Shown here: positions 4,096 to 44,385 of the stretch, in pieces
Position numbering within the stretch: the stretch's first letter is position 1
How the letters are laid out: each line of letters opens with the position of its first letter
Source: Raillietiella orientalis
Taxonomy: Eukaryota
Length of the DNA stretch: 64,000 nucleotides
NCBI GenBank assembly: GCA_036172245.1
Contig: JAYWIR010000041.1
Span: forward strand, 1,922,001 to 1,986,000
Reading direction: 5' to 3'
Made by a program: the position numbers and the translations under genes
The notes under the pieces: model-generated
Database searches by the model: none
Told to the model about the DNA's origin: nothing
Seen by the model: only the letters and a program-made list of their open reading frames with translations

Positions 4096-4610
4096 GGGGT
4101 TGCCACCCAGTCACGCCGGGGCATTTATTAGAAAACTTGACAATCTTTGAGGTACGAGCCAACACAACAACTGAGCTGCCGGGTTTTCGGTATACAGACC
4201 GACTTGACTCTCCTCGGCAGCGGAGGGGGAAGGAGGAAAAAAAAATAATTAAGAAAAAGAAACAATTTAGAGGGCCGGGAAGGGATCACTGTGCGCTTGC
4301 GGGAGGGTCCATCCTTTGCAGGATGTCGTTGAGTCCATCCGTATGCTTCCCAGGTGGGGCCATCTGGTCGCAATCCGCAGAAAGCGAACTGCAAATTCGA
4401 TGGCGTCCCTTTCTCTGCTTCTCTGTGGGCTTCGCTCCACGTAGCCACAATCCCACACCTGGCACAGTTGGCACTCTTCCCAACTCGTCCCAAACGTTGA
4501 TTATCGTGTTGCACCAGAAAGAGCGCAGGTTGGCTGTTAAGGCGGCTGGGAAGCCCATGCGATCCAGGAGCTCAAGAAGAAGCGTCTGATCCACGCAGTT
4601 GAACGCTCTG

Positions 4611-5698
4611 AATCACCTGTCGCCCCGCGAACGGTAGTGCCTGGCTGCAGGAAACCGTTCGCACGTGGGCACAGAGCGAGATGCAACGCGCCGTACAGAA
4701 ACGACGGTTCCTGTTCGGGCGCTAAAGTTGCACGCTCCGAGAAATCCTGGAGATCCCAAGAAGAGAGCTTGGTCAGGAAGAACCCTCCTCGCTGCTGCGC
4801 CGGCCCTCCTAAGGGAAGATCTGGACAGCGATGTTGCGGCGAAGTGGGAGGTTACAGTTACCATCTCCGGAAAGGAGAAGAAGCTAGGAGAGTGGAAGAC
4901 GAGCCAGCTTACAGACGCTGCGACCCTGAGTACGCCTCGCCATGGACTTCTGCGCTGGGGCGCGCTGTTCCCATTGAACATCTGAAGTGGCCCCGGTTCT
5001 TATGAACACTTCCACCCTCCCCTTAAAATGGCAAGAGTCGGCTCTACTGTTGCAGCACTGGGGACTCCCCTGCAACGCCCGCCGACACCATTGGACCTCG
5101 GGGACGGTGAACCCTAATTGTGTTAGGTGTGAGGAACGGGAGTCCCTCCCCCACCTCCTTATGGATTGTGTTGCCCTTCGGCTCCTTTGACTACGCTTTG
5201 CCGCGGCCATCAGAATCCCCTGTGGCAACCCCAGGGACTCACTGAAGTCCCTTTTTGTGTCGGACGCACTTCGAACTGCGGTCTCGTTAGCAACCTGTGC
5301 TGCCTTCATGGGATCGTCGCCGCTTGGAGCAAGGCAACGGGAGGACCTCGAGATAAGGTGCCATCCAACGCGCCGCCGAATTTTAGGAGAGGGCGTCGCG
5401 ATGACCCTACCTGGATCCAGAAATACAGAGAGAGCTTGCCGGCATCCTGCGAAGGATGCAACAGCCCCAGCAACAATAGTGATCCCTTCCCTTCCCTTCC
5501 CACGTTTTCTTTTCTTTTTGTTTAGTTTTTTGTTTGTTCCCCCTTCCCCCTGCTGCCGTGGTGAACCGTACCGGTCAGCGAACCGGTGACCCGGCAGGCT
5601 CTGTATTGTTTCTTCGGGCGTGGCTGGATCACTGGCCTAGCCACAGCGCGTGTTAGAGTTTGTTTTTAATAAACGCTCCGGCGAAAACCGGGTGAAAA
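4611..5698 (+). mobile_element. 5'-truncated LINE inserted antisense into the RT KAFD motif of element V
   Basis: ORF2 C-terminus (LPLKWQE..HWGLPCNARR..CVRC..HLLMDC), 3'UTR and terminus ccgggtgaaaa. Imperfect 12-bp TSD ttgaacgctctg (4599-4610) / tcgaacgctttg (5699-5710). Confidence 0.9.
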
Positions 5699-6780
5699 TC
5701 GAACGCTTTGCGCAGATCAACCGCGACCGCAAGGCTCCCGACGCATCCCTCGACAGAGGACCTCCCTGTCCCTGGCTCGCGGGTAGTCGAGGATTCCCAC
5801 GGCCGGCTGTCACCCCGCTGTAGCAACGCGAGCCAGGTCCGCGCGAGGAACAGGTTGGCTTCCATCGATCGGCTGGGAACAGCGTACATCTGCTCCGGAC
5901 TTATGAATATTTCGGCCACCCGTCCGATGCTCGCGGACCACAGTTTCGCGGCAGCTTGACGTCTGCATTCACCACTGTTACGGAACGTCAGTTGCCGATG
6001 TTGTGTAGGTCTCCTCCCTTCGGGAGGAGCTGACCGGAACGAGTCGGGAAACTCGTCCGTTTCTCGAGTCAGCACTTCCATCTTGTGCACCAAGGGCGCG
6101 AGCTCTACCGCAAAGCTTTGGTAAAACTCTGCGGGCAGGCCATCCTTCCCTGGAGCTTTCCTTTTCCGGAGCTTTCCGATGACGTTGATGATTTCGCCAA
6201 TCGAGAAAGGTTCCGTGAGCTTCTGCCGGGACTCCTTCACTGGAGCGCATTCTAGCAGAAGGTGCCGCGAGAAGTCGTGCTGCAGTGGTGACTTTGCGTA
6301 AAGGGAGTAGTAGTAATGTTGAAGTCGCTTGCAATCAGGTGGTCCTTGTGCACGCACGCCTCAGAGAGCCATCTGCGTTGCAGGGCGTCCAAAAGTTTTT
6401 GCGCACCTGGTGCAGGTTGGAGCTGCTCTGTGCGTAGACGTTGGTAACGACAAGGTCGATCGAGTCGGACCACTTGAGCACAAGCTGGCCGACCCTACCT
6501 TTCGCGTCGAACCGCACGCTATGCACCGTACGCATGATGCCTGACTTCAGCAGAAGGCCACCCCTTTCGATTTACGGTGCCGCACCGCCAGTGCAGCTTT
6601 CCGCCCGCGATCCGTTCGAAATCGGCGGCATCCTCGTCCGAGATCATGTGGATCTCTTGGAGGAGCACCAAGGAGAATTTTCGCAAGGAGTGGGATGCAT
6701 CGCGCCCTTTTCCCGTCGTTGCGCAGGCCGTTCACGTTCCAAAGGACCGCGCAAGCTACGGAAGGGCGCGATGCCACGCA

Positions 6781-8430
6781 TTACTTCAGGGAATCCGACG
6801 GCGTAGCACTCGAGAGGCTCTCGGCCGGCACGATGATTGGGCAGGGAGGAGGAAAGGGGAACCTGAAACCCATCCCTTTCCTCTATCCCTTCTTTTTTTG
6901 CAGGGATCCACAAGGCGGCCTTCACGGAGGATTCCCGGAAGCTTTCCTGCTTTTCTGTTACGGAGGCTTCTTCCTGTTCGACTTATTGTGCCGGGAGCGT
7001 TCTAGTCGCTTTGGCCTTTCGCGTGCCGAGTGGCGAAATCCCGGCTCGGGGCAACAGGTCACGGCATCCCGATTCCGACGACCTCTGGAGAGGCCTCTTC
7101 GAGGATCTCCAGATTTCTTTCCGGCCGGCCTTTGAGGCTGCGCGCGCTGTTACGTCTTCGACGGTCGGTGGCTCCGCAGTCGCAGCGTTCGCCATCGCGC
7201 CGTTGGGTGCGGTTGCTTCTTCATCGACGAGTCGATCAGAAGCAGGCTGCTTTCCCGCGTCGAGGTTAACTGGAGCGGCCTCCGCGTCGATCGCGCTATT
7301 TTCGAGGCCACTGATCGCAATGACCACGACCTTCGTAGTCTGCCTAGAAGCGCGATCGTTAGCGCCTTTCGAGGCCTTCGGAGCTTTAGGCCGCGAAAGT
7401 CGCGGGATTTTTTCCATTTTCAAGTTGAAACTTTTTTTTTCCCCGACAGGTCACCACCGTCCAGCTTCTTTCTCCGGCAGTACCTCGGGGTCAACGGGAC
7501 CCACCTCGGCTGTATCGGGGGAAGGGACCTCCTTGCTGGCATCCCCCACCTGTTTTTCTCCTTTGGGGGAAATCGCGCTCGATCTTCTCTTCATTTGGTT
7601 TTGTTTTTTCTTTTTTTTCCTCCGGCACGCTCTTGAAAGCTCTGCTGGGTCTGAGCGGGCAGAAAAATTTAATATGCCCGCTCTTCCCGCATTTTTGGCA
7701 CAGAAGGTCGGGACATCTTCTCTCCAGGTGCTACGACTTGCCACAGTGCATGCAGACCTTTGGCTTCCCCTCACAAACTAGAGATCGATGAGTTCACCAC
7801 GACCTCTAGTTTGTGAAGAAACCCTTACCCTTCTTGGACGACCACGCGCGCTCCGGCTATCCCACCGATCATCCCCTTGGAGTCGGGGAAGATGCTGGGC
7901 TTTGACCACAGTTCGTGGACCGTCCCGTATTGCTACAGTGAGCGGATGATCGCTTCTTTGATCATCCTCACCGTAACTCCGGTAGAGTGTACGACCATAG
8001 AGAGGTCCTTCGTCACTGGGAAGAGCTTGCGCCTTCCGATTGTGATCGGTACGTGCAGTAGTCTTTGGGTAAGGCTCGCCTCCTTGCAAGCCACCTCGAT
8101 TGTTTGCCCACCACTCAGAATGGGCGACGAAAGACCTCCTGTTTTACTTGCAGCTTGTGCAGCTCCTCCGAGAAGCGCGCTACTGCGGGATTCTACAGTT
8201 GACCTACCTTGTACCTCAGGCATGGGTTGTGGCTTCGAGGAGAGGTAAGCCTTAGCCTCTTCCGCGGCCGCTGGCGAGGGTGCCGCAGCCACAGCGCTCC
8301 ACAGCGTCCTCCTGGGGGACGTCGATTCTTCCAAGGAAGGGACGGGATCCACCTCCACCGCCCTGAGTGCTGGGGCTTTCACTCCTGCTCCCTGGGCTTC
8401 AGTGGCAGGGCCACTTGACATTTCAGCCAT
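6781..8430 (-). pseudogene. LINE ORF1 (gag-like, zinc knuckle), frameshifted
   Basis: WSAVAAAPSPAAAEE..IEVACK..LTQRLLHVP..DLSMVVH is homologous to ORF1 at 38509+. Broken CCHC knuckles at about 7700-7770. Confidence 0.8.
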
Positions 8431-8503
8431 CAGGCCGCCTCCAAACAGTCACACCAAACAAAACACCAAACTCTCGGAGAGTGCCAATGCACGTCCGACC
8501 GAC

Positions 8504-9029
8504 ATGGTGATCGCAGAGATGGGTTGCATGGAAGCCATCGTCACGGCCCGCCATGTGCTGGAGACGATGGCGCATCGAAGGGAGGTCACTGGGATGGCAG
8601 CCGCCTACAGGAGGACGACCTCAAGGTGACCTCACCGGCAAGAGGAAGTGAAGGCGAAGATCGTCGGCATCCAGCACCGTTTCTGAAGTGAAGGAACGGC
8701 CGACACCGATGAGCCTTGTCCCATCTTCCTTTTTCCTCTTTTGTTTTTTTTATTGATCACTCCCTTTCGCTCCGGACCTTTCTCGTTTTTTTGTGTATTT
8801 CTCCCAGTGCATGTGGAGCGACGCCAATGACCCTTGCCCCACCCCCCCGGATTTTCTCATTTTTTGTTGCCCCCCTTCCCTTCTCTCCCATTCCGGACTT
8901 TTAGGGTATCCTGACCTACGTGTGGATGGTGCCTCCTCCTGAACTTCTTTTTGTCTTCTGTTGGGAGCTGCGTCTTCCCCACTTGTTTATTTTTATAAAA
9001 TAAACGTCCCGGCGCGTCCGGCTGAAAAA
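8504..9029 (+). mobile_element. LINE ORF2 extreme C-terminus + 3'UTR
   Basis: MGCMEAIVTAR resembles MCCIRAIVKAR. Pyrimidine-rich UTR. Terminus aataaacgtcccggcgcgtccggctgaaaaa. Confidence 0.75.
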
Positions 9030-9970: not shown

Positions 9971-10229
9971 TGTGAAGAAGTCCTCAAGCGATTTCTTTGG
10001 GCTCGGCTGCGAAACGGATGCTCAATGGATCCTCTAAGCATCCGCTTCGTGGATGCGTTCTGGTGCGCACTCGTGGGCACAGCCCTGAGACCCGCAGGGC
10101 TCGAACACATAAAGGAGAAGGGAGGAACCCGCAGCCGAGAGGCGGGAGCACCCATCGAAAGGAAAAATGATGGCTTCTGTTGAGTTCGATCCTTTGTGAC
10201 CAGTTTGATGAGTGAGTGTAAGCGATGGG

Positions 10230-20419: not shown

Positions 20420-21102
20420 TAGCGCCCAGATTTGCCATTATTTATTAAATTATAGAAATAATAAAGGTGCAATTAAATGCTCCTGTGCTGAACCGTCTGA
20501 TTCACCACGTCAGTCCAACTTGCCGATCACCAGTCCGTAGACCGGCGAGGTCCGTTTCCGCGGCGAAGAGGGAGGGAAGACCACAAACAAAAAGAAACAC
20601 AAAAGAAAGTAAGGGGGGGGAGGTGATGTTTATTGGGGAGAGGAGGGCGGGGGAGGGATTACTGTTCGCCTGGATACGGCCTCTGTATGCTGTCCAGGAT
20701 GTCGACAAGTTGTGCTCTTCTCTTTCCCAGGTGGAGCCATCTCGACGCGGTCTTCAGAAAGTGAATGGCCTCCTTACCATTCTGGCCTCTTCTTCTCGCG
20801 TTCCAGCCCTCAAGGATTCCGTGGATGCAGCAGAGACGGGACGCGGCTGGCGGCAGATGGCAGCTAACGAAGAGGACCTTAAAAGTGTCCCTGGGGTCGC
20901 CTTCCGGGTTTCCCAGGATCGTCGATAGACGATCCCAGAGGAGGAGGAGGGCGGCACAGTCCAACAGAAGATGCGGCAAAGTCTCTTTCTTGCCGCAACT
21001 CTCGCAACGGGCAACCACACTCCACCGTGTCCAATGACGTAGACGTGTTTTGCATGGGAATCCCCCATGCAATGCCACCTCTTGCCACTTCATGGGGAGG
21101 GT
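20420..21102 (-). mobile_element. 5'-truncated LINE in AT-rich host DNA
   Basis: ORF 20659..21093 (KWQE..HGGFPC..CESCGKKETLPHLLLDC..CCIHGI). 3'UTR with hexaloop hairpin gccggt-ctacgg-actggt. Degenerate terminus. Confidence 0.85.
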
Positions 21103-24100
21103 GAATTCGATGTAAAGCAGATGTCATGGAGATCTTCATCGGGAACTGAGTGCAACACTCCTTAGCTTGAATCTTTTTGGTGCTTGGATATCTCCAGCCA
21201 GTCATTTCAACTGGCTTCTGTCGCTTTTCAGATTCATTGAGAAATCGCTTGCTTTTGCATTCAAATGTTGCCGTACTTTCTTAATTTTCTGTTCGATGAA
21301 AATTTTTGTTCTTGGACCAGTAGTCTAGGTTATCCTTCCTTCAATTCATCCCCATTCGAGAAATTAAGTGCCTCGCGACTTCTAGCAATGATAATTAATT
21401 GCAATAATTTCAAAATCAGCTTTTTAGCTCCTTCTGTGTTCTGCAACTTGAACTTCCTCTTTTCAAAATTAAAAACTGCTTCTTTGAATATGTAAGAAGG
21501 CTATTTATAGAGAAGAATGTAATTGTAAAACTACTCTCTCTACGTGGTCTTCTGTGCTTCAGCAACGCACCGAAGACAATGTTGGAAACCGAAATTCAAA
21601 TGTCCGCTTTTATCTTCATATTTGTACATTAATCACGCACCAGTATTACGTGCCTACTTTCCAAACCTGCATTTATGAACATCTTCACTGTTCTGGCTGA
21701 AGTTTTGCTCAGAAATTACTGCCGGCAATTAAATCCAACGAGCTGACGAATCTGATGAATAATCTGAATCAGACGATCCTGAACTTCTTTTTATGGAAAC
21801 TCAGGTCTGCGAGAATCCATGTTCTTCTTTATTAATTCATGTTAGAAAAAAGAGCACGCACACACATACGCCCATTTGTATTTCTGCTTGCTTTTTAAAG
21901 AAAAGTGGAAAATCGTCGACGGAGGCAATAATTCCCATCATCCCATTGCAAATAGCTCGTAAGAGTTGCATGTGTTTGTGATAAACTTATAAGATGTCTA
22001 TCCGCTCTACCCATTTCAGTGGATGGTGCTCGAAAACATCCAAGATGCAAGAGTGATGCAAGAGTGAAATAGATTGGAATTTGGTTTACAATAAAGTAGG
22101 CGTTTCCCCCAAGTCGACAAAGCAACACTGCAGGGATCTATCTATATGCACAGGGATGTCCGCAGACAGAATGCTGAAAACGCTGAAATACAAGATAGCA
22201 CAAGTAAAGCATAAAAGACTGAATCAGACGCACTTCATTAGCGGTTCCGACTGTTCATTTCAGCCCATCAAAATTGCTCGTTTCCCTCGAATGCTACCTG
22301 CCCTGTCGTCTTCCCGAATTTCGAACTGATTCCAAACTGCAAACCGTTAGTCCCTTCTTTTGATGACAACACGTCTCGGAAGTAGCCACAAGGGTTGTTC
22401 CTCCTCGCCCATTTTTTTCTGGGATATTCTCACGGGAAAAGCACAAAAGGTTGAAACGGTTATTGCGAATTACATGACGGATCTCTTGATGATAGATGAA
22501 AAGTTACCGAGAATTTTCCCCTGATGCGTTTCCTTGCTTCCAATTTCATAATCCAACTTTCCGTCTAGCTGGCTTCAAGTCAAAACTCTATTCAGCTGTA
22601 AGCTTGCTTGAATTTTCTTAGGGCATTTCAAAGCCCTAAGAAAGTCACGGTCGAGCTCGGTGAGCGACGATCCTCTTCGGATTGCGAAAGGGCGCGCAGG
22701 GAATAACACGGAATGATGGTGAAGGCTAGTGACCTGCAACGGAAGAAGGATGCCGTGTACGATACTTCAGTTCCATATACTTTGAAACTGCGCCTGAAAG
22801 CCTTTCATTTGAATAACTCTTCTGTGAGAAGAAACGGAATCTGCTAAAAGGCATATGACAGAGCGTTGTGTGATCTATGATACAGTAGATGATGCGTTTC
22901 GTACTGTAGTTACAGGCAAAAGCATTCAAGCCGTTATGAGTCGGTCCTTATGTAGAGAAAGAATTGGGTATTCTGTCCGAAATATGAACAGAAAGCAGCC
23001 TTTATCTTCCTTTTTTGTTTTGTTTTGCCTTTTTTCACGATATCTGATGAAAATAAATTTTGGCATAACTTCTACATTCAGTGAATGCTGTTCACGCACC
23101 AATGGTTATGATAGTATTAACATGGGCTAAATCATCAAGCCAATACTTCAATTTTTTCTTGTTTAGAATAGTTGGTTTTTGTAACTCCGATGAATGTCTA
23201 AAAGGTCAACAGGAGTCGAGTTCATGGGCATGGTGGTTGTTCTACTGATGAAGCCGTTTTCGCTGCATGCGTATCTCTGCAATTAAGATCAAAGTGATCA
23301 ATTCACGATGAAATAGATTCTTATAATTCAAATAACTTTGATTATTAGTGTATCGGAAAGAATGACTGCGTGTAAATGGTTTTCTAACAAAAACACAAAA
23401 CATCCAAACCCCTGAAGACCAAAGTACCTTCATGATGACATATAGCCATTAGAAAATTTTCCAGCTTACACGAAAAATTCATCGAGAGGTCCAGATGACA
23501 AGGAATAAGAATGGCATTTTATGTAACACGTTCAAATGACCTGAAATACCAAACTGTGCGGTTAAGATTTTAGTTTCATCCAAAATCAGTAGTATATGGT
23601 AGGTACGCATACAATTACACAAAATGCATATGCCTTTCTGATAAGAGCATATTCGAGTGGATTTCCGTTTTGCCAATAATAACTGTGAAAACAAATCAAG
23701 GACTTAAGGTTGAATAAAAAGCACTTGAAACTTGACATCCTAGTTGTTTGTAACTAATTAGCGAGGCGGAGCACTCTCAGCTCATCAGCATACATAACTC
23801 TCAATTCGAAATTAAATAACTCCATTACTAGGAACACATTTTATCTGTAGTGTGCAGTCGCGATAAATCTCTCGAGCAAACACCCTATGAGTTCACTGAA
23901 TTGACGAAGCTGCAAGGTCCACATATCCTCATCAAAACTTTGTTTTTGGATTTTGTCTTCTGAAAGATTGCGCTCAAATCATCCTCTTCCATTATGCATC
24001 TTCGGTTCATCATCTTTAAGCTATATACCGAGGCGCACTCCAATATGGAACTATCAAGCTTTTATGTATTAAATAATTCAGCAGATTTACAGAACTTTTC

Positions 24101-32130: not shown

Positions 32131-32350
32131 GCTCAGCGGGGCACAGTACGTCGAGGTTGTATGCAAAGACATCACCTTGGCTAAGTGCCTTATCAATACC
32201 CCGCTGGTCATGGACGGACGCAAGATCTCCCGGTGTCGATGTACCGGTCCATCGTGGTCCATCTCACCGGCATCACTAATCATATGACGCGGTCTGCGGT
32301 TAGTGATGAGCTTAAAAAGTACGGAGAAGTGCATGGAGCAGTACGAAAGG
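32131..32350 (+). pseudogene. LINE ORF1 fragment (other subfamily)
   Basis: QYVEVVCKDITLAKCLINTPLVM..SIVVHLTGIT..KYGEVH is homologous to ORF1 at 38919+. Confidence 0.75.
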
Positions 32351-34049
32351 ATGAAGCAAGTGTAAAAGCATGGAGCAATAAGAAAGGAAACAATAAACTT
32401 GCCTGCTCTACACTTCTCTTCGAGAAGAACTATGAAGCGTTTGTAATAGTAATGGATTGGGCTTGTGTTCGGCTGCAAATTGGGTCCAGAATGATTGAGT
32501 TCTACATGATTGAGTTTGCAATGAATAGGATGCATTCATATCGTGTAACATGGTGACAACATGCAAGGCATGAGCATTGTACCCGACATTGAAAAAGGAC
32601 TGTGGAGCCAGAGAAATTTTGTATTTGCTTCTACGGAAATAAGTATCCTCGGATATTTTTCCTGAGCACGAGGATTTATAATGCGCTGAGATGGAAGTTA
32701 CACTTACAAATTTCATTGCCTCCTTTTACGTATGGATGAAGACCATAAAATTAACGGCTGGGAAATTTGTTCTGCTTGGACACTGATTTTGAGCTACGGA
32801 CAGAAGACACTTTTCCACGAAGGGATTCAAGACTGATTAAACTCGGGGTTATTGTGCCAGCATAAATGAATGGATGAGATGGATCCCACGAAACTGGGTG
32901 ATGTCCAGCTTCCACGAAATCAGCTGCTTATGAAGCCGCATTTTGTGAGCATCAAGCGTCATTAATTTCATCCCCGGTGGGTGTGAGTAATCTTACTAAG
33001 GTATTAAACATTTGAGAATCATGGCATTATTAGAGCATGGTAGCGAAGGCATCTCATTTTCCGGGTGCTTTGTTACTTTGCCTGTTATCAGTCTAGTCCG
33101 TGAAGTGGACCTCAGCCACTGGTCCACCTTCCGTAAAAGGCAAACGTCGCTATTCAAATCAAGGAAGCACTTTGATCAAGTGCACCGTTGAATCCGCGTG
33201 GGTGCGAACCGTGACTGCGGTTCGAATGCACCCATTCTGCTAACTCTTGGAAACAAACTGACTTTTGGGTGGAATCATATTTCGTGCATGATGAGACTAC
33301 AAGAAATACTACACTTTGACTACGGCGTGCCTAACTGGGTTATTGTTTATCTGCTTCTAACGTACTTCCTTCAAATGTACTGTCTTTTGCGATGGTAAAC
33401 AGATGCCAATGAATGATGGATAGCCCGCGCTATCTCATATTTCATCTTTTGTGACAGAATGGCTGTTCTCTGTGACTATGCTCTGCAGTACGAGCACTCG
33501 CTTTCTGTGCACATTGCCCTTTTGAAAGATCCACTGCGAGGTGGAGAGTCCCATTCGGTCTGTCCGTTCATAGAATTTATACAGCATTTTCCTCATGCGG
33601 ATTATCTTACCGATACTTTCAAATTGCTGTTATTCATTCATTACTTATTCATAGTATCCATTATTTACTCATTTCTTATCTTGATTGGAATACTTGTTCC
33701 GTGCAAAGATGCTCGTAGCTTTTTCTTAAAGAATCTCTTTATGAAAATTCGTGATGTCTTCTGGAAACACGACATCATAAAATAATTTAAATTCATGCAC
33801 TTGCTTTGAGAATTGCAGCTGAGATACTTAGAATAAAGTAAAGATTTAAGTCGCTCTACTGGGGAATGATCCGTAGCTTTTACATATCTTTGACCGAGGG
33901 CGGACAAATCCTTGATCAGAAGTATTCTTGCCGCTTAGCGTCAATAGGTCGTAGCATGATGGCTGCTCGACTAGGTACAACGCCCTGGTCGGAACTCAAG
34001 ACGACTCGATCGTTACAGACGATTTAACACCTCCACATTCGCCATGCCC

Positions 34050-34446
34050 CCTTTGGTACAGCAATTGACCTTGGTGATTCGTGACGTGATTGGCGTTCCC
34101 ACCTCGTTTCGCTCAGCAAAGGTACGTTTCCTTCCCAATGGAGGAGACTTATGGAGCATCGGCAACTGGCGTCCAATAACCGTCTTTAACAGGAAGCCAA
34201 GTTGCTAGCGAAGACATGGGCCGAGCTTCTAGAATGGGTAGCGGAATCCTTCATTGGCCCGGAGCAGTCTTACTCTGCCCCCTGGCTAATCATGGATGTC
34301 GACCTGTTCTACGCTAGCAGCTGGATCGCGCTCCAACAAGAGAGGGGCAGGATGGGCACCACGAATTCTGGATCGTCCGTCGGCCAGAGGCAAGGTCGGG
34401 CGGGAAAGGGATCTCTAGCTGTCGCAGCCCTGCACAAGGCTTTCGA
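34050..34446 (+). pseudogene. LINE RT N-terminal fragment ending at KAFD
   Basis: SFRSAKVR..GGDL..NWRPIT..PEQSY..LHKAFD. Confidence 0.85.
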
Positions 34447-35277
34447 TTTCCACCCGGGTTTCGCCTGGGCATTTATCACAAAAACAAACTTCAACACGCG
34501 CTGCGGCTGGCCCAACGATGCAGCCACGCCGAAGAAACAGAACCTGCCGGGTCACCGGTTCGCAGAACGGTAGGGTCCACCGCGGCAGCAGGGAGAAGGG
34601 GCAAAAACAAAAAAACTAAACAAACAAAAAAAAAGAAAACGTGGGAGAGTGCGGGAAGGGATTACTGTTGTTGCTGGGGCCGTCGCATCCTTCGGCGGAT
34701 GCCGGCAAGCTCTCTCTGCATTCCTGGATTAAGGTGGGGCGATCGCGACGCCCTCTCCTAAAATTCGGTAGCGCGTTGGATGGCACCCTTATCTCGAGGT
34801 CCTCCCGTTGCCTTGCTCCAAGAGACGACGATCCCATGAAGGCAGCACAGGGCTGCTAACGAGGCCGCAGTTCGAAGTGCGTCCGACACAAAAAGGGACT
34901 TCAGTGAGTCCCTGGGGTTGCCACAGGGGATTCTGATGGCCGCGGCAAAGCGTAGTCAAAGGAGCCGAAGGGCAACACAATCCATAAGGAGGTGGGGGAG
35001 GGACTCCCGTTCCTCACACCTAACACAATTAGGGTTCACCGTTCCCCAGGTCCAGTGGTGTCGGCGGGCGTTTCAGGGGAGTCCCCAGTGCTGCAACAGT
35101 AGAGCCGACTCTTGCCATTTTAAGGGGAGGGTGGAAGTGTTCATAAGAACCGGGGCCACTTCAGATGTTCAATGGGAACAGCGCGCCCCAGCGCAGAAGT
35201 CCATGGGAAGGTGCACTCGGGGTCGCAGCATCAGTTAGCTGGCCCGTCTTTCACACTCCTATCTTTTTCTCCCTTCC
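34447..35277 (-). mobile_element. 5'-truncated LINE joined antisense at the KAFD motif
   Basis: Close relative of 4611-5698. Its terminus ccgggtggaaa abuts ttcga of KAFD. Second TSD copy not found. Confidence 0.85.
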
Positions 35278-35279
35278 GT

Positions 35280-35485
35280 TGATCCCTTTTTCTCCCTTAG
35301 TACTCCCATTTAGGCTGTTGCTTTTTGTTCGCAGTCCCCTTCTCCCCCACTCGTTTCGCACCTACCGTTTTGCTGGCCTGCGTGCCAGTGGTGTCTATGT
35401 ATTATGGTTTTTGTAGTCATCGGCTGGAAGCAACTGTTTCCAGCTGGTTTATGAAAATAGGCGTCCCAAAGTGACCGGGACGCAA
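35280..35485 (+). mobile_element. LINE 3'UTR-only fragment (type of element 46198-52111)
   Basis: ctggc-ctgcgt-gccag hairpin identical to 51974-51989. Degenerate terminus gcgtcccaaagtgaccggg. Confidence 0.7.
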
Positions 35486-35511
35486 CTTCATGCCGGGCGG
35501 TGTCGTGAATT

Positions 35512-35551
35512 CCTTTCCGCATAGTCAAGGGCCTTTCCGCATAGTCAAGGG
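35512..35551. repeat. Perfect 20-bp tandem duplication
   Basis: cctttccgcatagtcaaggg x2. Confidence 0.9.
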
Positions 35552-36353
35552 CGGAGTGAAGGAGAGAAGATTCGGCCGTATCGCGCGCGCGAGCGCACCC
35601 GCATCGCGGTGTCCACGAGGGCAGTATCCCCCTGGTAGCCCCCTCCTCTGCATAAACGGTCCTTAGGCGTTCTTCTGGTTTCTCGCGGCGTCATCGGAGA
35701 GCGCTTCCCCGCGTCTCGCCTCTCCATCGCTTTACCTTGGGGCATATACCCCTTTCCTGCTCTCTCCAGGCAGCCACCCTCGCACTCTGCATGCCTACGG
35801 CTCGGTGCATCGGTCTGACCAAGATCATGCGTCTCCTGCCTCTTCCGCAGGCTCGCTGCTGATGATTTTGCATCTGTAGCATCAGGAATGCCCAGCCGAC
35901 GACCTTCAGGGAACCTCTCTCTCTAAACGCAACTGCGCCGTTCGCAAGGGCACCTTCGTGCATAGGTGCTCCTTCGTCTTCGGCGTATGCTGCACAGACG
36001 AGGCACGCCAGCCGCCCGGTCGCTCCAGCCGTTCGCATCCTTCATCCGGATCCTAGTGTTCATCACGTGCATCCGCAGCATCGCTGCCCTCAACACGTAC
36101 TTTGTCAACACTCTCGAGATCGTGGAGCCTGGATGCACCTGCAAGGTGAAGGTACGCAAGGTCGGCTTGGCCGTGGTCCAGAACAGGTATGCGGGAAGGG
36201 AGGTCACGCGTAGAATAAAGAGAAGACGGAGGATGAGAGCGCGGGGGACGCGCGCCCATTTAGCCCGATTGCAGTCACGACGGCGTGCCCTTTGGTGTAG
36301 AGCGGTGGGCGAGCATGACAACCGGTGCGTAGCGCGGGTGGAGTACGCTCTGC

Positions 36354-38415
36354 TTACACACTCGGGTGCTTCGGGGCGTTTACTTTTTAAAAAAAACAAA
36401 CAAGCATGTGTAGGGCCATTGCCCCTACAGCGTTCGAAACTCTGAACTTGCCGAGTAGCCAGCGCGCAGGCCGGCGAGTTCGACTCGGCAGCAGAGGGGG
36501 AAAGGAGAAATAAAGACCAAAAAAGAAAACACTATTTGCAAAAGCAGGAAGGGTTTGGGGAAGGGATCACGTTCCGCGGGGGTCGTCCTCTACATCCTTT
36601 CCAGGATGCCGGCAAGTTCGGTCCGCATACGTCCCAGATGGGACCATCCGGCTGCCGTCCTCAGGAAGCGCAAGGCGGAGCAGATATCGTTCGGTCCACC
36701 AGTGGCGGTGCTCCAGGCCGCCACAATCCCTCTTAGGCAGCACAGTGCTGCAAGGGCTGCGGCAGGCGAAAGGGCGTCGCGCACAAAGAGGCGCTTCAAT
36801 ACATCTTTGCGGTTGTTCATGGATGCTCCAAGGGCCGTTGCGAAGCGCAGCCACAAGGGCCGGAGGGCAACACAGTCAAGGAGCAGGTGCAGGAGGGATT
36901 CTCGTTCCCCACACCTGACACAGTTCGGGTCCACAGCCCCCATTGTCCAGTGAGATCGGCGGGCGTTGCTGGAAATCCCCAGTGCAACACCAGGAACGCC
37001 GACTTCTGCCACTTCAGGGGGAGGTCCCGGGTATTTGTCAGCACTGGGAGCCACTCGAGTACATCCAGCGGGATGCTCAGCAGCTCGCTGCAGCGCAATA
37101 GTCATTTCTGTGGAGCACTTGGGGTCGCAGCGTCAGTCAGCTGACCCGTGGTCCAACCAACATGTTCCTTCTCTCTTCTTCAGAAGCTACAACGGACCTG
37201 CCACTTGGCCAGCTGACTACTGACCCCAGGTGCTCCCTGAGTTAGGGCAGAGCCGCGACATGGGAGGTACTCTCAGCCCACGCACTCGAGGCGGGCTGCA
37301 CGATGATGTCCTGCAGCGAGCGGCTGTTGTAAAAGGTGTGCAGCAGCCGCTGCGGCGACTCCTGACTCGCCTCCTCAATCTGGGCCCACGTGCGAAGGCT
37401 TTCTTGCAACTACGAAGTGCCGTTCGCGGGCCGGCAGGTGATCCAGGTGTTCATTCTGGTCAGCTTGACCACTCGCCGAAGTGCCAGTCTGCAGTGGAAC
37501 ATGTACCGGCGTTTGCGGCGCTCTAGGAAGGTAGACAGTCCCGCGCAGCCTCTGGCTCGCTGTACCAGGTGTCGTGCAGGCTCGCACCAGCTGGTGCTCC
37601 ACAACTGCGCCACTAGGGCTAGCGTCTTGAACTGCAGCTGCAGTTCCAGCCGCTCCAGCGTCACGAGGCCGAGATCTCCATCGCGACGCGAAGCACACAA
37701 GTCCTTTAGGCGGACTCGGGACCTCCCTCTGCCCCGAAGGGTGATTCTCAGGAGGTCCTTCGTCCGCCTCCTCACACCGCAGGGTGAGGGGCAAATAAAA
37801 AGCAAGTGGCGAAAAAGGAAGGCACGAACGTGATCCACAGCGCGGCCCGTTCCGGCAAGAAAAATTCGCCATCCAGAAACAGGCCGGTAGACTTCTACAC
37901 CTTTTGGAGGCAGCGAGACTACGCCTCAGCCGGAGAGTACTCACCGAGGTACTTGAGGTACCGCACCGTGGAGATCCCCAAGCAGAACCGGTCCTGTTGC
38001 CCTGCTCACGAGAACCGACTGCAACTACGGACGGATTCGCTCTGTTCACCTCCAGTCCTGTCCCGCGACGCAGCGGCAGCTCGAAAAAGTATTCCACCGC
38101 AGACGCCGGGAGGACATGGGGGGCAGCAGCAGAAGATCGTCCGCATACGACACCACGGCCGGTGTACCTGGGCACACGCGCGGCAGGCGAGCTAGAGTCT
38201 CAGTGTACGCCCTCAACACCAGCTCGGTGCTGAAGAGCAAGGGGCTCAAGCTGTCACCCTGCCGTATCCCGCGGCGCACTGGTACACCGAACACGTTTCA
38301 TGCGCTGAAAGAGATATTAGTCAGCTCGCAGAAAGGCCATTAAAGAGGCCGGGAAGCCTAATCGCTGCAGAAGCTCCAGCAGGAGCTTCTGGTAGACGCA
38401 ATCGAAAGCTTTACG
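36354..38415 (-). mobile_element. 3' half of LINE W (RT from KAFD to 3' end)
   Basis: KAFDCV, GIRQGDSLSPLLF, SYADD, GRSRVRLKDLC, zinc finger, 3'UTR and terminus. Several frameshifts. Confidence 0.9.
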
Positions 38416-38529
38416 TCGTTAGAGCGGACGTGTTTCCTCGGTGCTCCTCGTGCCGGGAACCGTCCCTAGGTGTAGGCTTCGTGTGCGGTGGTGGTCGATC
38501 AGGCAGCAATGCCTGACACGACCACCAGT

Positions 38530-38643
38530 GCGTGTCAGGGGGCGGTGGCAACGTCGCCTCCTGAAGAAATGGAGTGCCAGGTGGCGGCGGCAACGTCGCC
38601 TCTAGAAAAGTTGGAGTGCCAGGGGGCGGCGGCAACGTCGCCT
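38530..38643 (+). repeat. About 2.7 x 42-bp in-frame tandem repeat in the ORF1 N-terminus
   Basis: Unit gagtgccagggggcggcggcaacgtcgcct..., encoding (E)CQGAAATSP.E. Confidence 0.85.
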
Positions 38644-38918
38644 TCAGTGGCGAAGGAGGTGGGGGCGTCCGCCCCCACACAACCGGTCCCCGCTGCAGCG
38701 CGGGCGTGGAGCGCCGTTGTGTCGGCGCCATCGCCTGCAGCCGCGGCGGAATTGTCGGCCTATGTGGAGGAGGGGTATAACCCCTCATTGTTCTACAAGG
38801 TAGGCAATCTATATTCTTTAGAGAGCGCGCGCGCCTTTTCGAAGGGGATGCGCGCTCTCGATGTTAAAGAGGAGGAGCTCTGCGCTATGACCATTCGTAG
38901 CGGGGGCAGTACGTAGAG

Positions 38919-41018
38919 GTGATCTGCAAACACGCAGATCTGGCCCAACGTCTGCTCAAAACCCCCGTGGTGATGGGGACACGCAGGCTCCTTCCCATTA
39001 CGGCGGACCACAGTATGGTGGTCCACCTTTTAGGAGTTACCGCGCGGATGCGGAAAGAACAAGTACGCGCCGCGTTGGGAAAAGAAGGCACGGTACATGC
39101 AGTATGGACCAAGCCTAGTCCTTTCGAGGACTATACCACAGTTCAGTGCGGCCTCACGGCTGCCCGTGTAACCGTTTGGGAGGGCTCTACCCTTCCCCAC
39201 AAACTGGTGGTCGGCGGAGAAAGCGTCGACCTCTGGTACGTGGGGAAGCCCAAATACTGTGGCTTCTGCAACACGTCGGGACACCTCAAAAGGAGGTGCC
39301 CCAACGTACAGTGCCTGGTATGCGGGACAATGGGCCACACGAAGGAAGTGTGTCCACAATCCGCTGTGCGCGTGGTTTCCCCGAGGAACGTAAAAAAACG
39401 CGCGCGGCTGCTACAGAAAAGGCTGGCGGCGAAAGCTGCCGCTCAAGCTGTGCCACCCACTCCCGTGGTCCAGTCCTCAGCCGACACCCCGGCAACGAAT
39501 GCCGAAAAGATCGACAAAAGCGGTCAGGTGTCGGAATGGCAAGAAGCCACAGCGAAAAAGAAAAAGTCGAAGAAACAACGACGAATTGAAAAAAAGCTCG
39601 CCTACCAAAATAAAAAACAGCAGGTTAGCGAGAATTTAAAAGAATGCAGCGTCGTCGTGGAACGCGTTCCCGCCGAACGCCGCAAGGTAGAAATCGCTGC
39701 TACCGACGAGCAACCCACTGTTGAAAATGTCAACAGCGTGGGGAGCGAACCGGCGGAAGCGTCCGTCATCGAGACCGTGATCGATGACGCCGCCTTCGAG
39801 CGTGCCGCGGAGGAGCTGGCTGCATCGTTGCAGCCAGACCCCTCCAAGGCTGGCCCCCGAGTCCCTCTGAAGGACTTGTGCGCTCCGCGCCGGGACGGCG
39901 GTCTTGGCCTCCTGACGCTGGAGCGCGTTGAAATCCAGCTGCGGTGGCGAACCCTCGCCATCGCAGCGAAGATGTGGAGCACCCCTTGGTGCGTTCCGGC
40001 CCGCCTCCTCGCCAGGCGTGTGTCCCGATGCGAAGGACTCGCGTCGTTTCTTCTGTGCCCTGGCCGGAAGATTCGAAGATGCGGCCTTATCCTCGGACGC
40101 ATAGCAACCCTGGCGAAGGCGAACGGTTGGATGGTTTGTGGCCCCGCCAACTCCTCCGCCTGGCTGGAGGAGACTGCTGGCACCTGGGCCAAGCAGAACC
40201 GGAGGAGAGAAGACAATATGAACTGCCTGCGAATCGGCCCATACGCCAACCGCACCCTGCGGGAAATACTGGAATTTCCCCGGAGTCGCAGGTGGGCGTT
40301 GACGACCCCCCTTGCTACGGCGATGCCCTACCTCCTGAGGGCGCTTCAGGACCGCCAGAAGCCGAGGTGGCAAGTCTCCTGCCGGATCGCAGGCAGGGAG
40401 ATGTTAAGCGGCTGGACCACAGGAGAACTGGCGGACGCCACGACCCATAGCGTCCAGCCGCGAGGCTTGACGAGATGGAGCGAGCTGCTCGCCATCCCTA
40501 CGGATGTTCTGAAGTGGCCCCCGGTAATGAAGGAATCCAGGATCCTGCCCCTTAAGTGGCAAGAGTCGGCGTTGCTACTGCTGCACTGGGGTTTACCCTG
40601 CAACGCACGCCGCTTCCACTGGACAAGGGGAGCTGTGGATCCTGAGTGTGTCAGGTGCGGAGAGCGGGAATCGCTCTCCCACCTTATTGTGGACTGTGCT
40701 GCTCTCCGACCCCTCTGGGAACGGTTCGGGACGACCCTCGGGCTCCCTACGGGCAGCACCCCCAGAAACGTTCTTCGGCCCCTCTTCGTGAAGGACGCAC
40801 TGCAGCCAGCCGCAGCCATCGCAGCCTTGTGTTGCGTCCGTGGCATCGTGGCGGCATGGAGCGACGCCAACAACGGAGGAGTGGGTCCACACGCGAGGGA
40901 TGTCATCCCATATGCCCAACGCTTCTTGCGGAGAGCTGCCGGATGGCCCCAACTGGGGAATATGCGGATGGACCTCGAGGGCTTCTTTCAACGGATGGGC
41001 CCTCCTCACAGCGAGTAG
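38919..41018 (+). CDS. Chimeric ORF: LINE ORF1 (2 CCHC) fused in frame to the ORF2 C-terminal domain of a nested copy
   Basis: 699-aa open frame. It switches from ORF1 (..QPDPSKAG) to ORF2 (PRVPLKDLC..) exactly at the TSD 39841-39854. Expression unknown. Confidence 0.6.
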   Translation: MICKHADLAQRLLKTPVVMGTRRLLPITADHSMVVHLLGVTARMRKEQVRAALGKEGTVHAVWTKPSPFEDYTTVQCGLTAARVTVWEGSTLPHKLVVGGESVDLWYVGKPKYCGFCNTSGHLKRRCPNVQCLVCGTMGHTKEVCPQSAVRVVSPRNVKKRARLLQKRLAAKAAAQAVPPTPVVQSSADTPATNAEKIDKSGQVSEWQEATAKKKKSKKQRRIEKKLAYQNKKQQVSENLKECSVVVERVPAERRKVEIAATDEQPTVENVNSVGSEPAEASVIETVIDDAAFERAAEELAASLQPDPSKAGPRVPLKDLCAPRRDGGLGLLTLERVEIQLRWRTLAIAAKMWSTPWCVPARLLARRVSRCEGLASFLLCPGRKIRRCGLILGRIATLAKANGWMVCGPANSSAWLEETAGTWAKQNRRREDNMNCLRIGPYANRTLREILEFPRSRRWALTTPLATAMPYLLRALQDRQKPRWQVSCRIAGREMLSGWTTGELADATTHSVQPRGLTRWSELLAIPTDVLKWPPVMKESRILPLKWQESALLLLHWGLPCNARRFHWTRGAVDPECVRCGERESLSHLIVDCAALRPLWERFGTTLGLPTGSTPRNVLRPLFVKDALQPAAAIAALCCVRGIVAAWSDANNGGVGPHARDVIPYAQRFLRRAAGWPQLGNMRMDLEGFFQRMGPPHSE

Positions 41019-41243
41019 TGATCCCTTCCCTGCCCTCCAACTTCTTTTTGTTTGTTTATTTTTTATTTTTCTTTTTGTTTTACCCCCATCCCCCTTCGCT
41101 GCTGAGGAACGCTATGCCGGGCTGCGTCCCGGCGTCCCGTCAGGTCCCGTGCGTATGGCCGTGAGCGGGGCCTTGTACCGCGTATGCAGAGTTTTTTTTT
41201 TTTTTTTTTTTAAATAAACGCCCCGGGCGTACCCGGGTGTAAA
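39855..41243 (+). mobile_element. Young 5'-truncated LINE nested in ORF1 of X
   Basis: Perfect 14-bp TSD cctccaaggctggc (39841-39854, 41244-41257). Open frame to the ORF2 stop, full 3'UTR and terminus. Confidence 0.95.
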
Positions 41244-41625
41244 CCTCCAAGGCTGGCAAAAAGGCAGTTAGGCGTCCGGCCTCCACCGAGGAGTCGGTAC
41301 CTTCCGACCCCGAGGCGCAGGCCGGAAACGAAGTTTCCATCTCCGCGGCACCCCGCCGGAAGGCTGGAAGGAAGTCCAGCAAACCCCGGAAAACCCTTCT
41401 CCAGGCCGAAGGCGTGGAGATGACTTCCGACTGCGAGGGTGCCATGAGCGTGGGAGAATCCCGGGAATCGTCACCCGAGAGACCACCACGCACAGACACG
41501 GAGGAGATGGAGGGGGTTGAAGCCGGAAAGGTACCCAAGGTGCCTGAGGAGGCCGAAACCCTAATGGTCATCTCACCCGCCTCGGAAGAGGCGGGTTCCC
41601 CCACACCGTCATCTTCCCGGCAGTA

Positions 41626-43958
41626 ATCCCGGGAATCTCCTCCCGCCGTCGTCTGCGCATCGCCGTATGGAACGTAAACGGCATGACAGAGGCCGGCAGG
41701 AGACGACACATGGCCGCCATTCTAGGATCATTCGACCTTGCGCTGCTGCAGGAGATCCATGTGATCTCTACAGAACAAGCGCAGGAGATCGAACGCATCT
41801 CTGGAGGGCGGCTGTGGTATCGGTGTGGAAAATCGAGAAGTTGTGGTGTCGCCTACCTGCTTCGGCCCGCCGTCGAGGCCGCGGTCCGTGGCGGGCCGAT
41901 CACGGTCGTGTCGGTCAGCTGACTCTCAGTTGGTCCGACTCGATCGACCTGATCGTCACGAACGTTTACGCCCCGAGCGGAGCGGACCTGACGAAGAGGA
42001 GGGCCAGGAAAGGATTTTTCCTTGCCCTCCGTCGCGACTGGTTGACCGAGGCAGGCGTGCGGAATGCCCATCTGGTTGCAGGCGATTTTAACATTCGCCT
42101 GAAACCGGATGGGCCGAATCACGAGCGGGACCTGGTCAACGAGGTGTGCACGGCGGTGCACACTTGTAATTTGTTGGCCAGTGTACCAGGGATGGAGGAC
42201 AACATCGATCACGTGTTCCTTGACGAGCACCTGTGCACTCGTGTGGGCAGGCGCTGCAAGTTACCGTGCGAGTTGTCCGACCATCGACCAATCGTGGTTG
42301 AAATCCATCCGCGCGACAGGGGCCCCCCCTCGTCAGCGTGGCGTTTGCCAGGGGACTGGCTGAAGCTCCCGGACGCGACGGAACATCTCCGCACGTTTAT
42401 ACGGAGCTTTAGGATGCAGACACTCCAGGATTGGGACCGCTTCAAACGGTCGGTCCAGGAGTTCTGCGACCAGTTCCCTCTGCACCGCCTACCTGCGGGA
42501 TTTGGGGACGGGGTACGTAACGAACGAGCCTACCTGCAGGCCCGTCGTTACGCCAGGACCCCCGACATCCGCAGGCTGGCGGAATACAAAGCGGGAGCCG
42601 AGAGGCAAGCCTGGCAGTCCGGATCGGCCAGCTTACTGGACGATCAGGGCCAGGAGCACTCGGCACCTGCCCAAATCCGCGGCCTGCTGCGGAGTTACTA
42701 CTCCTCCCTGTATGCCAGGGCACCTCCGGAGAGGAACGTCTCACGACTCCTGCTTCCGGAAGGCGCTCCAGCGATCGGGGAGGAGCAGAGAAAGACCCTC
42801 GACGAGCCTTTCACGATGGACGAGATCATCTCGGCCATCGGAAAGCTCAAGAGGCGCAAGGCTCCAGGGGAGGACGGCCTGTCCGCGGAGTTTTATCAAA
42901 CTTTCGCGGCTGAACTAACCCCCCTGGTACATCAACTCACCTTGCTGATACGCGAGACAGGTGACGTTCCCGCCTCGTTTCGTTCGGCAAAGGTGCGGCT
43001 CCTCCCTAAGGGAGGAGATCTGAGGAGCATGAACAACTGGCGTCCCATCACAATAGTGAATGCGGATGCCAAGTTGATAGCTAAGGTTTGGGCTGAGCGC
43101 TTGGGACGGGTTGCAAACGCCTTCATCAGCCCGGAACAGACGTATGCTGTTCCGGGGCGAACCATGGAGGCGAACCTGTTCCACGCTTCCACCTGGCTAG
43201 AGCTCCAACACGAAAGGGGCTTGATGCGCACCGGGAATTCCGGTGAGTCCGTTAGCCATGTGACGGATGGTCGGATGGGGGAGGGAGCACTTGCGGTCGC
43301 TGTCGACTTGCGTAAAGCATTCGACTGCGTCGACCAGAATCTCCTGCTGGAGCTTCTGGAACGCTTGGACTTCTCGGCCTCATTATTGGTCTATCTGCGC
43401 TCCAGCTGGCGCGACGCGCTCATCAACGTTTCTTTCAGTGGGCAAACCGTACACGGCGTGCCGGTGCGTCGTGGGATACGGCAGTGAGACAGCCTGACTC
43501 CCTGGCTCTACAGTACCTACTTTGAGTTGGTACTGAGAGCGTACAGGGAAACTCTGGCGCACCTGCCGCACGACTGCGTTGGTACGCCGGCGATTTCAGA
43601 GAACGCGGACGACCTTCTGCTTCTGCTCCCCATGTCCACCCCGGCTTCGGTGATCGAGGAGTTCTTCGATCTGCTGAGCCACGGGACCGGACTTACGGTG
43701 AACAGGGCGAAGTCGTCCGTGATGCCAGTTGACGCGGCGTGGGCAGGGCAGCAGGACTGGGTCCGTTTGGGAATCCTTACGGTGAGATACTTCAAGTACC
43801 TTGGTGTGCCGTTGGGGGACTATTCCGCTGCAGAAGCGTGGTCCGGCTGCCTCCAAAAAGTAGATACGGCGATCGGCCCGTTCCAAGGCGACAGGTTTTT
43901 CCTGCCGGAACGGGCCTCAGTTTGGAACACGTTCGCGGCTCCTCTCCTCCGCCTCCAC
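41626..43958 (+). pseudogene. LINE ORF2 (APE endonuclease + RT) of X
   Basis: WNVNG, LLQE, NVYAP, AGDFN, IDH, SDH, KAPGEDG, WRPIT, DLRKAFD. Stop at 43485-43487, YADD changed to NADD, frameshift at about 41890. Confidence 0.9.
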
Positions 43959-43966
43959 CGTGAAAA

Positions 43967-44385
43967 TCGAACGCTTTGTGCAGATCGACTGCGATCGCTA
44001 GAACCCCCTTCCCTCCCGGTCGTCCCTTACTTGCCGCGCTGGCGCTTCCAAATCAGGGTTGCCGACATTCCGTCTTTCCTTCTTTTCTTCGCGTTGCACA
44101 TGGAACCATGTGCTGGCGAAGAACAGGTTAGCCTCCATACTTCGCCTGGGAACAGCGCAAGTTTGCTCCGGGCTAAGTACGGATTCGGCTACGTGTCCGA
44201 GCCGCGCAGCCCACAGTTTTGCAACCAACTTGACGTCCGTGTTCACGACCGTGATCAAACGCCAGTTGTTTAACTTACGAAGGTCTCCTCCCTTAGGAAG
44301 GAGCCTCATCCTAGCTGACCGCAACGAGGCGGGAACATCGCCTTCTTTCCGGATCAGCTGTGTCAACCTAAGCACCAAGGGGATC
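43967..44385 (-). pseudogene. RT N-terminal part (probable 5' continuation of W) ending at KAFD
   Basis: GDVPASLRSA..LLPKGGDL..NWRLIT..PEQ..VDLHKAFD. Confidence 0.85.

Follow-up and report, generated by a model that had tools for sequence, protein, structure and literature searches.

Three nested L1-like LINE insertions at one bond of the reverse transcriptase codons of older relatives

The stretch of Raillietiella orientalis DNA considered here, a 64-kb window of contig JAYWIR010000041.1 to which all counts in this text refer, contains a nest of L1-like retrotransposons that lack long terminal repeats (non-LTR elements), or long interspersed nuclear elements (LINEs). Within this nest, three LINE insertions interrupt three older LINE copies at the same bond of the reverse transcriptase (RT) coding sequence, in the codons of the amino acid motif KAFD and in antisense to the host copy each time. 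When the proteins of a near-intact, full-length element that serves as the yardstick (REF) are mapped onto the window in six frames (tblastn), LINE fragments appear by the dozens between 1 and 12 kb and between 31 and 60 kb, on either strand, and the LINE blocks have a GC content of 50-61% vs. 31-45% in the intervening DNA. The parts shared by the family are a first open reading frame (ORF1) with a CCHC motif, an endonuclease of the apurinic/apyrimidinic (APE) type, an RT, an AATAAA sequence, a short hairpin and two to four terminal A's.

The three junctions (J1, J2 and J3, in the host copies H1, H2 and H3, respectively) are built alike. At each of them the 3′ end of a LINE, ..GTGRAAA, joins the sequence TCGAAMGCYTT, at 5698/5699, 34446/34447 and 43966/43967. 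The latter sequence represents, in antisense, the codons for K-A-F-D in the RT of an older LINE, a motif that we take to sit just past RT motif A's first catalytic aspartate, and both the bond and the orientation are the same in 3/3 cases. The initial annotation had reported antisense 3′ ends at the same base of the KAFD codons in three places, and the letters confirm it. At J1, ..aaccgggtgaaaa runs directly into tcgaacgctttgcgcagatc, the reverse complement of which reads DLRKAFD; the RT of H1 resumes at 4599-4607 (TTGAACGCT) and continues on the minus strand as AFNCV, giving a target site duplication (TSD) of 9 nt, T(T/C)GAACGCT, at 4599-4607 and 5699-5707. The host in this case is near-full-length, with ORF1 at 7524-8106, the endonuclease at 6315-6768 and an RT part that comprises residues 1-152 and stops at KAFD, and its insert, I1, enters the RT at about residue 483, continues to the stop codon (residues 483-712 at 4612-5295 by tblastn) and goes on through the 3′ untranslated region (UTR), AATAAA and hairpin to GTGAAAA. 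At J3, where the insert is the element B, ..gcctccaccgtgaaaa abuts tcgaacgctttgtgcagatcgac, and the partner TCGAAAGCTTT at 38402-38412 is followed on the minus strand by AFDCV; the TSD, TCGAA(A/C)GCTTT, comprises 11 nt with one mismatch, at 38402-38412 and 43967-43977. J2 reads ctgcacaaggctttcga and then tttccacccgggtttcgcc, with the host on the plus strand and the insert, I2, on the minus strand. Two partner TSD halves with a resumed RT had been noted initially, and these are the ones at 4599-4607 (J1) and 38402-38412 (J3), J2 having none; the half that had been listed at 38402-38415 belongs to J3 and not to J2.

Table 1. Coordinates of the host copies, inserts and other LINE features of the window
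Feature	Positions	Strand	Basis or remarks
H1, downstream half	4100..4607	-	RT restarts (K)AFNCVDQTLLLELL and reaches the 3′ end of H1 at ~4100
J1 TSD, left copy TTGAACGCT	4599..4607	.	Right copy TCGAACGCT at 5699-5707; sole difference CpG-to-TpG
I1, 5′-truncated LINE insert, antisense in H1	4608..5698	+	tblastn, terminal profile
H1, upstream half	5699..8500	-	5′ end near 8490-8500 (GGACGTG motif)
H2, upstream part, 5′-truncated	34015..34446	+	RT residues ~6-152, ending ..LHKAFD
I2, 5′-truncated insert	34447..35278	-	RT from ~residue 568 to 3′ end ..cccgggtggaaa; I1 subfamily
LINE tail, stop codon and 3′ UTR (..gtgaccgggacgcaa)	35279..35485	+	Terminal profile, E = 5e-7
H3, downstream half	36357..38412	-	KAFDCVYQKLLLELL to RT C-terminus, then 3′ UTR; 3′ end uncertain by a few nt
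J3 TSD, left copy TCGAAAGCTTT	38402..38412	.	Right copy TCGAACGCTTT at 43967-43977
B, insert at J3, full-length 5′ end	38413..43966	+	5′ UTR, ORF1, endonuclease 41593-42698, RT residues 1-361
C, younger 5′-truncated LINE nested in ORF1 of B	39855..41243	+	Exact 14-nt TSD; not at KAFD
H3, upstream part	43967..44387	-	RT residues ~13-152, ending ..VDLHKAFD
D, relative of B, internal deletion	44966..46129	-	Residues 1-109 of the RT fused to 628-733; 3′ end canonical, at 44966
REF, near-intact full-length element	46190..52112	+	Yardstick
REF ORF1 with CCHC knuckle	46553-48181	+	Pfam
REF endonuclease, APE-type	48182-49279	+	Pfam
REF RT	49457-51694	+	Pfam

The three events are independent, because the 5′ junctions and the TSD lengths differ and the hosts are diverged. 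The 5′ cut falls at about RT residue 483 in I1 and at about residue 568 in I2, the 5′ end of B is full length, and the TSD measures 9 nt at J1 and 11 nt at J3 and is missing from J2. The upstream halves of the hosts are pairwise 62.7-65.1% identical (277/442, 278/427 and 273/435), a range that becomes 54.8-68.1% over all 10 pairs when two uninterrupted copies are added; the hosts are as distant from one another as from the uninterrupted copies, and the loop before KAFD carries differing indels. The initial annotation had assigned the hosts, from their different upstream loops, to different subfamilies and had denied that they are one duplicated locus; the difference of the loops is confirmed. 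I1 and I2 are 91.3% identical (753/825, global alignment; 90% over 838 nt by blastn) and 83.6% identical (245/293) over the 299 nt nearest the junction, and the comparison of insert with host identity gives Fisher p = 6e-10 or lower. The 3′ UTRs of H1 and H2 are unrelated. A single ancestral junction, whether duplicated or converted, is excluded for practical purposes.

The recurrence can also be set against chance. The junction 19-mer GTGRAAATCGAAMGCYTTG, with no more than one mismatch, occurs three times, exactly at the junctions, and 0 times in 100 shuffles. Under a uniform model, the probability that at least three of 15 LINE ends fall on one bond and orientation present five times is ~3e-11, or 3e-7 to 2e-6 after correction for 12,000 element positions (any position and orientation of a 6-kb element). 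Profiles of 120 nt on the two sides of KAFD (nhmmer) recover five upstream sides (H1, H2, H3, B and REF) and four downstream sides, and three of the five RT copies are broken at the same bond; the unbroken ones are REF, which looks the youngest of the copies and is uninterrupted at 49901-49914, and the insert B, with an intact KAFD site of its own at 43314-43327. Outside KAFD, the 8-mer GCNTTCGA that immediately precedes the bond on the RT-sense strand carries an insert end at 0/10 occurrences, vs. 3/5 KAFD copies (Fisher p = 0.022). Since the sequence is not used elsewhere, recognition must be longer than the 8-mer or dependent on context.

The 3′ terminus that the initial annotation had recognised is real, because one motif ends 14 copies whose flanks differ. 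These copies terminate alike in AATAAA, about 20 nt with a short CCGG..CCGGG hairpin, GTG and two to four A's (AATAAA..CCGGGTGAAAA); all 14 nhmmer matches to the terminal motif have E <= 9e-5, and the sequence downstream of the termini differs from copy to copy. Such a terminus had been placed at each of the three junctions, and it is canonical at J1 and J2, the insert at J3 keeping ~10 nt of it. The window has 15 recognisable 3′ ends, three of them at KAFD and 12 at other sites, which bears out the initial description of a hotspot rather than a strict specificity. TSDs, 5′ truncation and the canonical AATAAA..hairpin..GTGAAAA end show that the junctions arose by true nested insertion through target-primed reverse transcription; in the window, TSDs of 9, 11 and 14 nt and truncations at RT residues ~483, ~568 and ~392 are found. 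Twin priming is ruled out as a source of such junctions, as it links internal points with one another and does not attach a 3′ terminus to any of them, and 3′ transduction of a composite of insert end and antisense RT piece is ruled out by hosts that are only 63-65% identical.

The inserts do not belong to a single subfamily. I1 and I2 form one subfamily, no more than 72% identical to any other copy save for a 64-nt stretch with 81% identity to the downstream half of H3 (blastn), and B shares no sequence with either of them. The 3′ region of D, the relative of B, is ~69-72% identical to I1, and because I1 and I2 differ from D in this way, at least two subfamilies are present at the KAFD bond. 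From these sequence comparisons, KAFD appears to be a hotspot common to the family rather than the target of one specialised sub-lineage. The initial proposal that a single sub-lineage is responsible is thereby not borne out, B coming from a subfamily other than that of I1 and I2, and D lying elsewhere. The similarity between I1 and I2 is itself a mosaic, with 80.6% identity at 4868-4939, 97.8% at 4940-5399 and 83.6% at 5400-5698 (coordinates of I1). The central block of 460 nt, which corresponds to 34745-35205 in I2, 29 kb away, has the same in-frame stops in both inserts, and this suggests either gene conversion between the nested inserts or mobilisation in trans of a source that was already defective. 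The near-identical stretch stops ~300 nt before the junction and does not undermine the independence of the events.

The surroundings of H1 and H2 have features of their own. The 3′ end of H1 (~4100) adjoins the last ~200 nt of the 3′ UTR of another LINE (3895-4103), which ends at 3895; the arrangement is a nested insertion into a 3′ UTR, with the flank CCCCCGAACGG. To the left of H2 lies AT-rich, unique DNA that is not LINE-derived. The LINE tail beyond I2 has no blastn relative within the window; its strand and position suggest that it is the rest of H2, with residue 153 to the stop codon missing, in which case ~1.8 kb of H2 would have been lost during or after the insertion of I2. At the boundary between the 5′ end of I2 and the 3′ UTR of H2 (35263-35299), two identical 13-nt copies of CTTTTTCTCCCTT stand 11 nt apart, a repeat that may be microhomology used in 5′ joining, and just past the tail there is a 22-nt tandem duplication (35509-35552) in which cctttccgcatagtcaagggc appears twice. 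A protein search with the chimeric reading frame over J2 (residues 67-127 of the ORF at 34190-34570) returned no candidate. A metagenome scan for CCGGGTGNAAATCRAANGCYTT yielded seven loci, 0/7 with a tblastn match to LINE proteins and with apparently unrelated flanks, which is evidence neither for nor against the pattern.

The insert at J3 and its neighbours give a view of how ordinary nesting is in this DNA. B starts with the motif GGACGTG common to REF and H1. Its RT homology stops at 43956, after which there is only accgtgaaaa, the canonical accgggtgaaaa less two bases; B is an internally deleted copy that retains the last ~10 nt of its 3′ end. In its 5′ region (38532-38643) is a 28-nt repeat, the copies 84 nt apart and 92.9% identical. 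The TSD of C, CCTCCAAGGCTGGC, matches 14/14 at 39841-39854 and 41244-41257, so that a nested insertion with a clean TSD is nothing unusual here; a reading of 38413-43966 as a circular permutation is ruled out by this exact duplication around C. D is 82% identical to B over 509 nt. Both elements are internally deleted with their 3′ ends kept, the deletion joining residue 361 to the last ~10 nt in B (43953-43966) and residue 109 to 628 in D (45611-45621), and frequent template jumps during reverse transcription in the B/D subfamily are suggested. The 3′ end of D (minus strand, 44966) faces that of a further copy, E (plus strand, 44834), over 131 nt (44835-44965) that resemble the C-terminal region of ORF1 on the minus strand.

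Contigs of a sequencing run (X1; Logan contigs, word share 0.15) were compared with 33900-45100 at 80% likeness, and 461 related LINE contigs were found, 14 of them at least 99% alike and 283 below 90%, with a depth of ~1 over the bin containing the 3′ UTR of I2. One contig, the shorter arm of which measures 68 nt, connects 39851 to 41259 and represents an empty C site in a relative. Another, connecting 38295 to 43965, has the look of an H3-like RT without interruption; at 28 nt its shorter arm falls below the 31-nt rule, and it is not counted.

The family assignment rests on domain content and order. In REF, Exo_endo_phos (E = 5.8e-10, 39.7 bits vs. a cut-off of 24.5) and RVT_1 (E = 4e-19, 69.6 bits vs. 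29.6) are recognised by Pfam, as is zf-CCHC in the ORF at 46553-48181 (E = 2.6e-6, 27.7 bits vs. 20.8); zf-RVT in C falls below threshold (E = 0.0062, 17.6 bits vs. 27.5). The endonuclease lies N-terminal to the RT in ORF2, and an ORF1 with a nucleic-acid-binding motif lies upstream of ORF2, as in L1-like elements with APE-type endonucleases. Among solved structures, the RT comes closest to human L1 ORF2p (E = 3.4e-25, PDB search). In a collection of 5.8 billion proteins, the top relative is a metagenome protein with 60% identity; the rest, which include plant L1-like proteins, reach at most 29%, and many of them carry RVT_1, Exo_endo_phos and zf-RVT (PF13966). An Atlas search gave generic RT clusters only. 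ORF1, endonuclease and RT of REF share one frame of 1714 codons (46553-51694), in which the only in-frame stops are at 48179, 49277 and 49454, and two further stops occur in ORF1 between a probable start near 46317 and 46553; to judge from these stops, REF may be a very recently inactivated copy or one that needs read-through. Rfam has no match across the window, and Pfam applied to 52 ORFs outside the main LINE blocks revealed no host genes and a single weak zf-RVT match (E = 0.00097, at 20662-21123), which falls in an isolated LINE remnant (20574-21123) in the AT-rich stretch between the blocks.

On balance, the recurrence is probably explained by a preferred nick site that is determined by sequence and belongs to the family's endonuclease or ribonucleoprotein (RNP). 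Three retrotransposition events, from at least two subfamilies, entered three different older copies, each presumably through a nick on the host RT-sense strand just past 5′-GCNTTCGA-3′, which encodes the Ala-Phe-Asp of ..VDLHKAFD. The 3′-OH exposed at the nick would prime reverse transcription at the 3′ end of the incoming A-tailed RNA, and because priming would start from the nicked RT-sense strand, the insert would come to lie antisense to its host. A second nick on the opposite strand, 9-11 nt off, would give rise to the TSDs of J1 and J3. The nick site would be longer than the 8-mer or bound to its context, and it would exist beside a looser general target preference. The junctions, the TSDs, the orientation and the independence of the events are shown by the sequence; the endonuclease as the chooser of the site and a genome-wide extension of the pattern are inferred.

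Several observations weigh against a sequence-determined nick site, or limit the support for it. There are just three events, in a single 64-kb window. J2 has neither a TSD nor a resumed KAFD half past the 5′ end of I2, and the identification of J3 as a 3′ junction depends on a terminal vestige of ~10 nt together with the TSD and the orientation. The 3′ end of D, so closely related to B, is found not at KAFD but at an unrelated site, with the flank CTTCCACC. By eye and without statistics, seven of the 12 non-KAFD flanks open with a YTYCC-like pentamer (CTTCC, CCTCC, TCTCC, CTTCA, TCCCT, CTTCC and TTTCC), a preference that the TCGAA.. of KAFD does not resemble. By inspection alone, the nicked strand showed no complementarity to the 3′ end of the RNA that could account for the site. 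Finally, the block shared by I1 and I2 implies DNA exchange between the loci or a defective common source.

The main rival explanation would place the choice of site in homology or DNA structure. Sense RNA would pair with the antisense strand of a resident RT at its most conserved stretch, forming an R-loop, or alternatively the partly palindromic AAAGCTTTCGA DNA would be unusually exposed or damaged; the displaced sense strand would then be nicked and would prime for the RNP of whichever subfamily is present. The shared site and the neglect of the bare 8-mer would be naturally explained in this way: at least two subfamilies are found at KAFD while a close relative of one is found at an unrelated site, and the 8-mer is insufficient at its 10 non-RT occurrences, of which none is used. 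In addition, the ~25 nt beside the junction are the best-conserved part of the five-copy alignment, and the nicked strand is always the RT-sense strand, the one that an R-loop would displace. We nevertheless consider homology or structure unlikely to be the chooser, because the same bond in 3/3 cases is finer than the edge of an R-loop or a lesion should give, direct evidence of pairing is nil, and used and unused KAFD sequences are indistinguishable, REF matching one H3 TSD copy. More doubtful again is the hypothetical specialised sub-lineage, in which I1 and I2 would be truly KAFD-specific and B would have arrived by coincidence or through a secondary event. Both copies of the I subfamily in the window do lie at KAFD (2/2), and they are 90% identical to each other and, outside the 64-nt stretch at 81%, no more than 72% identical to other copies. 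The number is nonetheless two, and these two share a block that was converted or co-inherited; both are 5′-truncated, so that there is no endonuclease of that lineage to examine. B, for its part, is a bona fide third insertion at the same bond, full length at the 5′ end and flanked by a TSD of its own, and its arrival by coincidence would be about as improbable as the whole pattern.

That one ancestral insertion reached the other hosts through segmental duplication, through gene conversion or through ectopic recombination at the motif is very improbable and is largely refuted within the window. The 97.8% block of I1 and I2 with its shared stops does speak for DNA exchange or for partly common descent, and the lack of a TSD at J2 would fit as well. 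Such a history is opposed by three different 5′ junctions and two TSD lengths, by hosts that are 63-65% identical where inserts are 84-91% identical, with identity falling at the junction, by the unrelated 3′ UTRs of H1 and H2, by the end of the near-identical block ~300 nt before the junction, and by B, which has nothing in common with I1 or I2. Chance coincidence of three unrelated nested insertions is the least credible account of all: nested insertions are very frequent in this nest, but the corrected probability of 3e-7 to 2e-6 and the absence of the junction 19-mer from 100 shuffles leave it almost no room. Returning to the preferred nick site, a more far-reaching version can be put forward only tentatively, at rather less than even confidence: RNPs of several subfamilies may home to the codons for motif A (..VDLHKAFD) in resident relatives, at one fixed bond and by a nick in the RT-sense strand.

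Known targets of site-specific LINEs include rRNA, tRNA, snRNA, microsatellites, telomeres and transposons; Tx1L, for example, inserts in the Tx1D transposon. Target-specific LINEs with APE-type endonucleases are established, the Tx1 and R1 clades among them, and transposons count among their targets (PMC4640811). The elements described here resemble those of the Tx1 and R1 clades in combining an APE endonuclease with an RT and in having a multicopy target with a fixed orientation and bond, a likeness that concerns features. They differ in that the target lies within the sequence that codes for the RT of relatives of the element itself and in that the site is used partially, by 3/15 ends and by at least two subfamilies. 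Strict site specificity of the R1/R2/Tx1L type is not seen, with 12 ends at differing flanks and D elsewhere.

Similar comparisons can be drawn with LINEs that accumulate in clusters. Zepp elements have 61% GC compared with 53% for the genome (PMC3446292). The nest described here is like the clusters of Zepp and ZeppL, L1-type LINEs of green algae, in being GC-rich (56-61% vs. a background of 31-45%) and in containing several nested insertions within blocks of 50-61% GC separated by DNA of 31-45%; this likeness concerns cluster features and not RT phylogeny. Zepp, as described there, forms tandem arrays consisting mostly of 3′ ends, whereas the copies here point both ways and the KAFD inserts lie in antisense, and the passages on Zepp do not describe a single-nucleotide RT target or an antisense rule. 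CNL1 of Cryptococcus, a non-LTR element reported to prefer its own copies in arrays, with a specificity that is undefined (PMC12810828), likewise inserts into copies of its own family; in contrast to the L1-like elements with an APE endonuclease and a defined bond described here, it is related to R2 and MoTeR and is subtelomeric. In a study of R1/R2 and transposable element (TE) double insertions, independent events at one site are told apart by TSDs and distinct 5′ truncations (McGurk and Barbash, 2018; PMC5932611), and the same logic shows independence here. The targets there are rRNA genes or generic preferred motifs, and not the RT motif of a relative. What sets the present case apart is a defined bond within the relatives' RT coding sequence, an antisense orientation that is obligatory, and a partial use across subfamilies. 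No description of such an RT-motif target was found in the literature by a few keyword-based searches, which are weak evidence of absence.

For Zepp, CNL1 and similar self-nesting LINEs, what is known does not, to our knowledge, go beyond insertion into copies of themselves. A defined bond in the RT motif of relatives would give self-nesting a molecular handle, with a nick site that can be tested. If KAFD does sit just past the first catalytic aspartate, every such event parts motif A from the remaining polymerase. If several subfamilies do home to these codons, the most conserved coding sequence of the family would serve as a self-renewing, and for now hypothetical, safe harbour, in which each event splits an older RT just past motif A and leaves the newcomer in antisense; conceivably, the choice might then be steered by RNA-DNA homology and not by the endonuclease alone. 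That such events inactivate competitors or yield antisense RT RNA, as the initial annotation had proposed, is speculation. Targeting of this kind would suggest how clusters of LINEs grow without striking genes, and it would suggest competition between LINE lineages.

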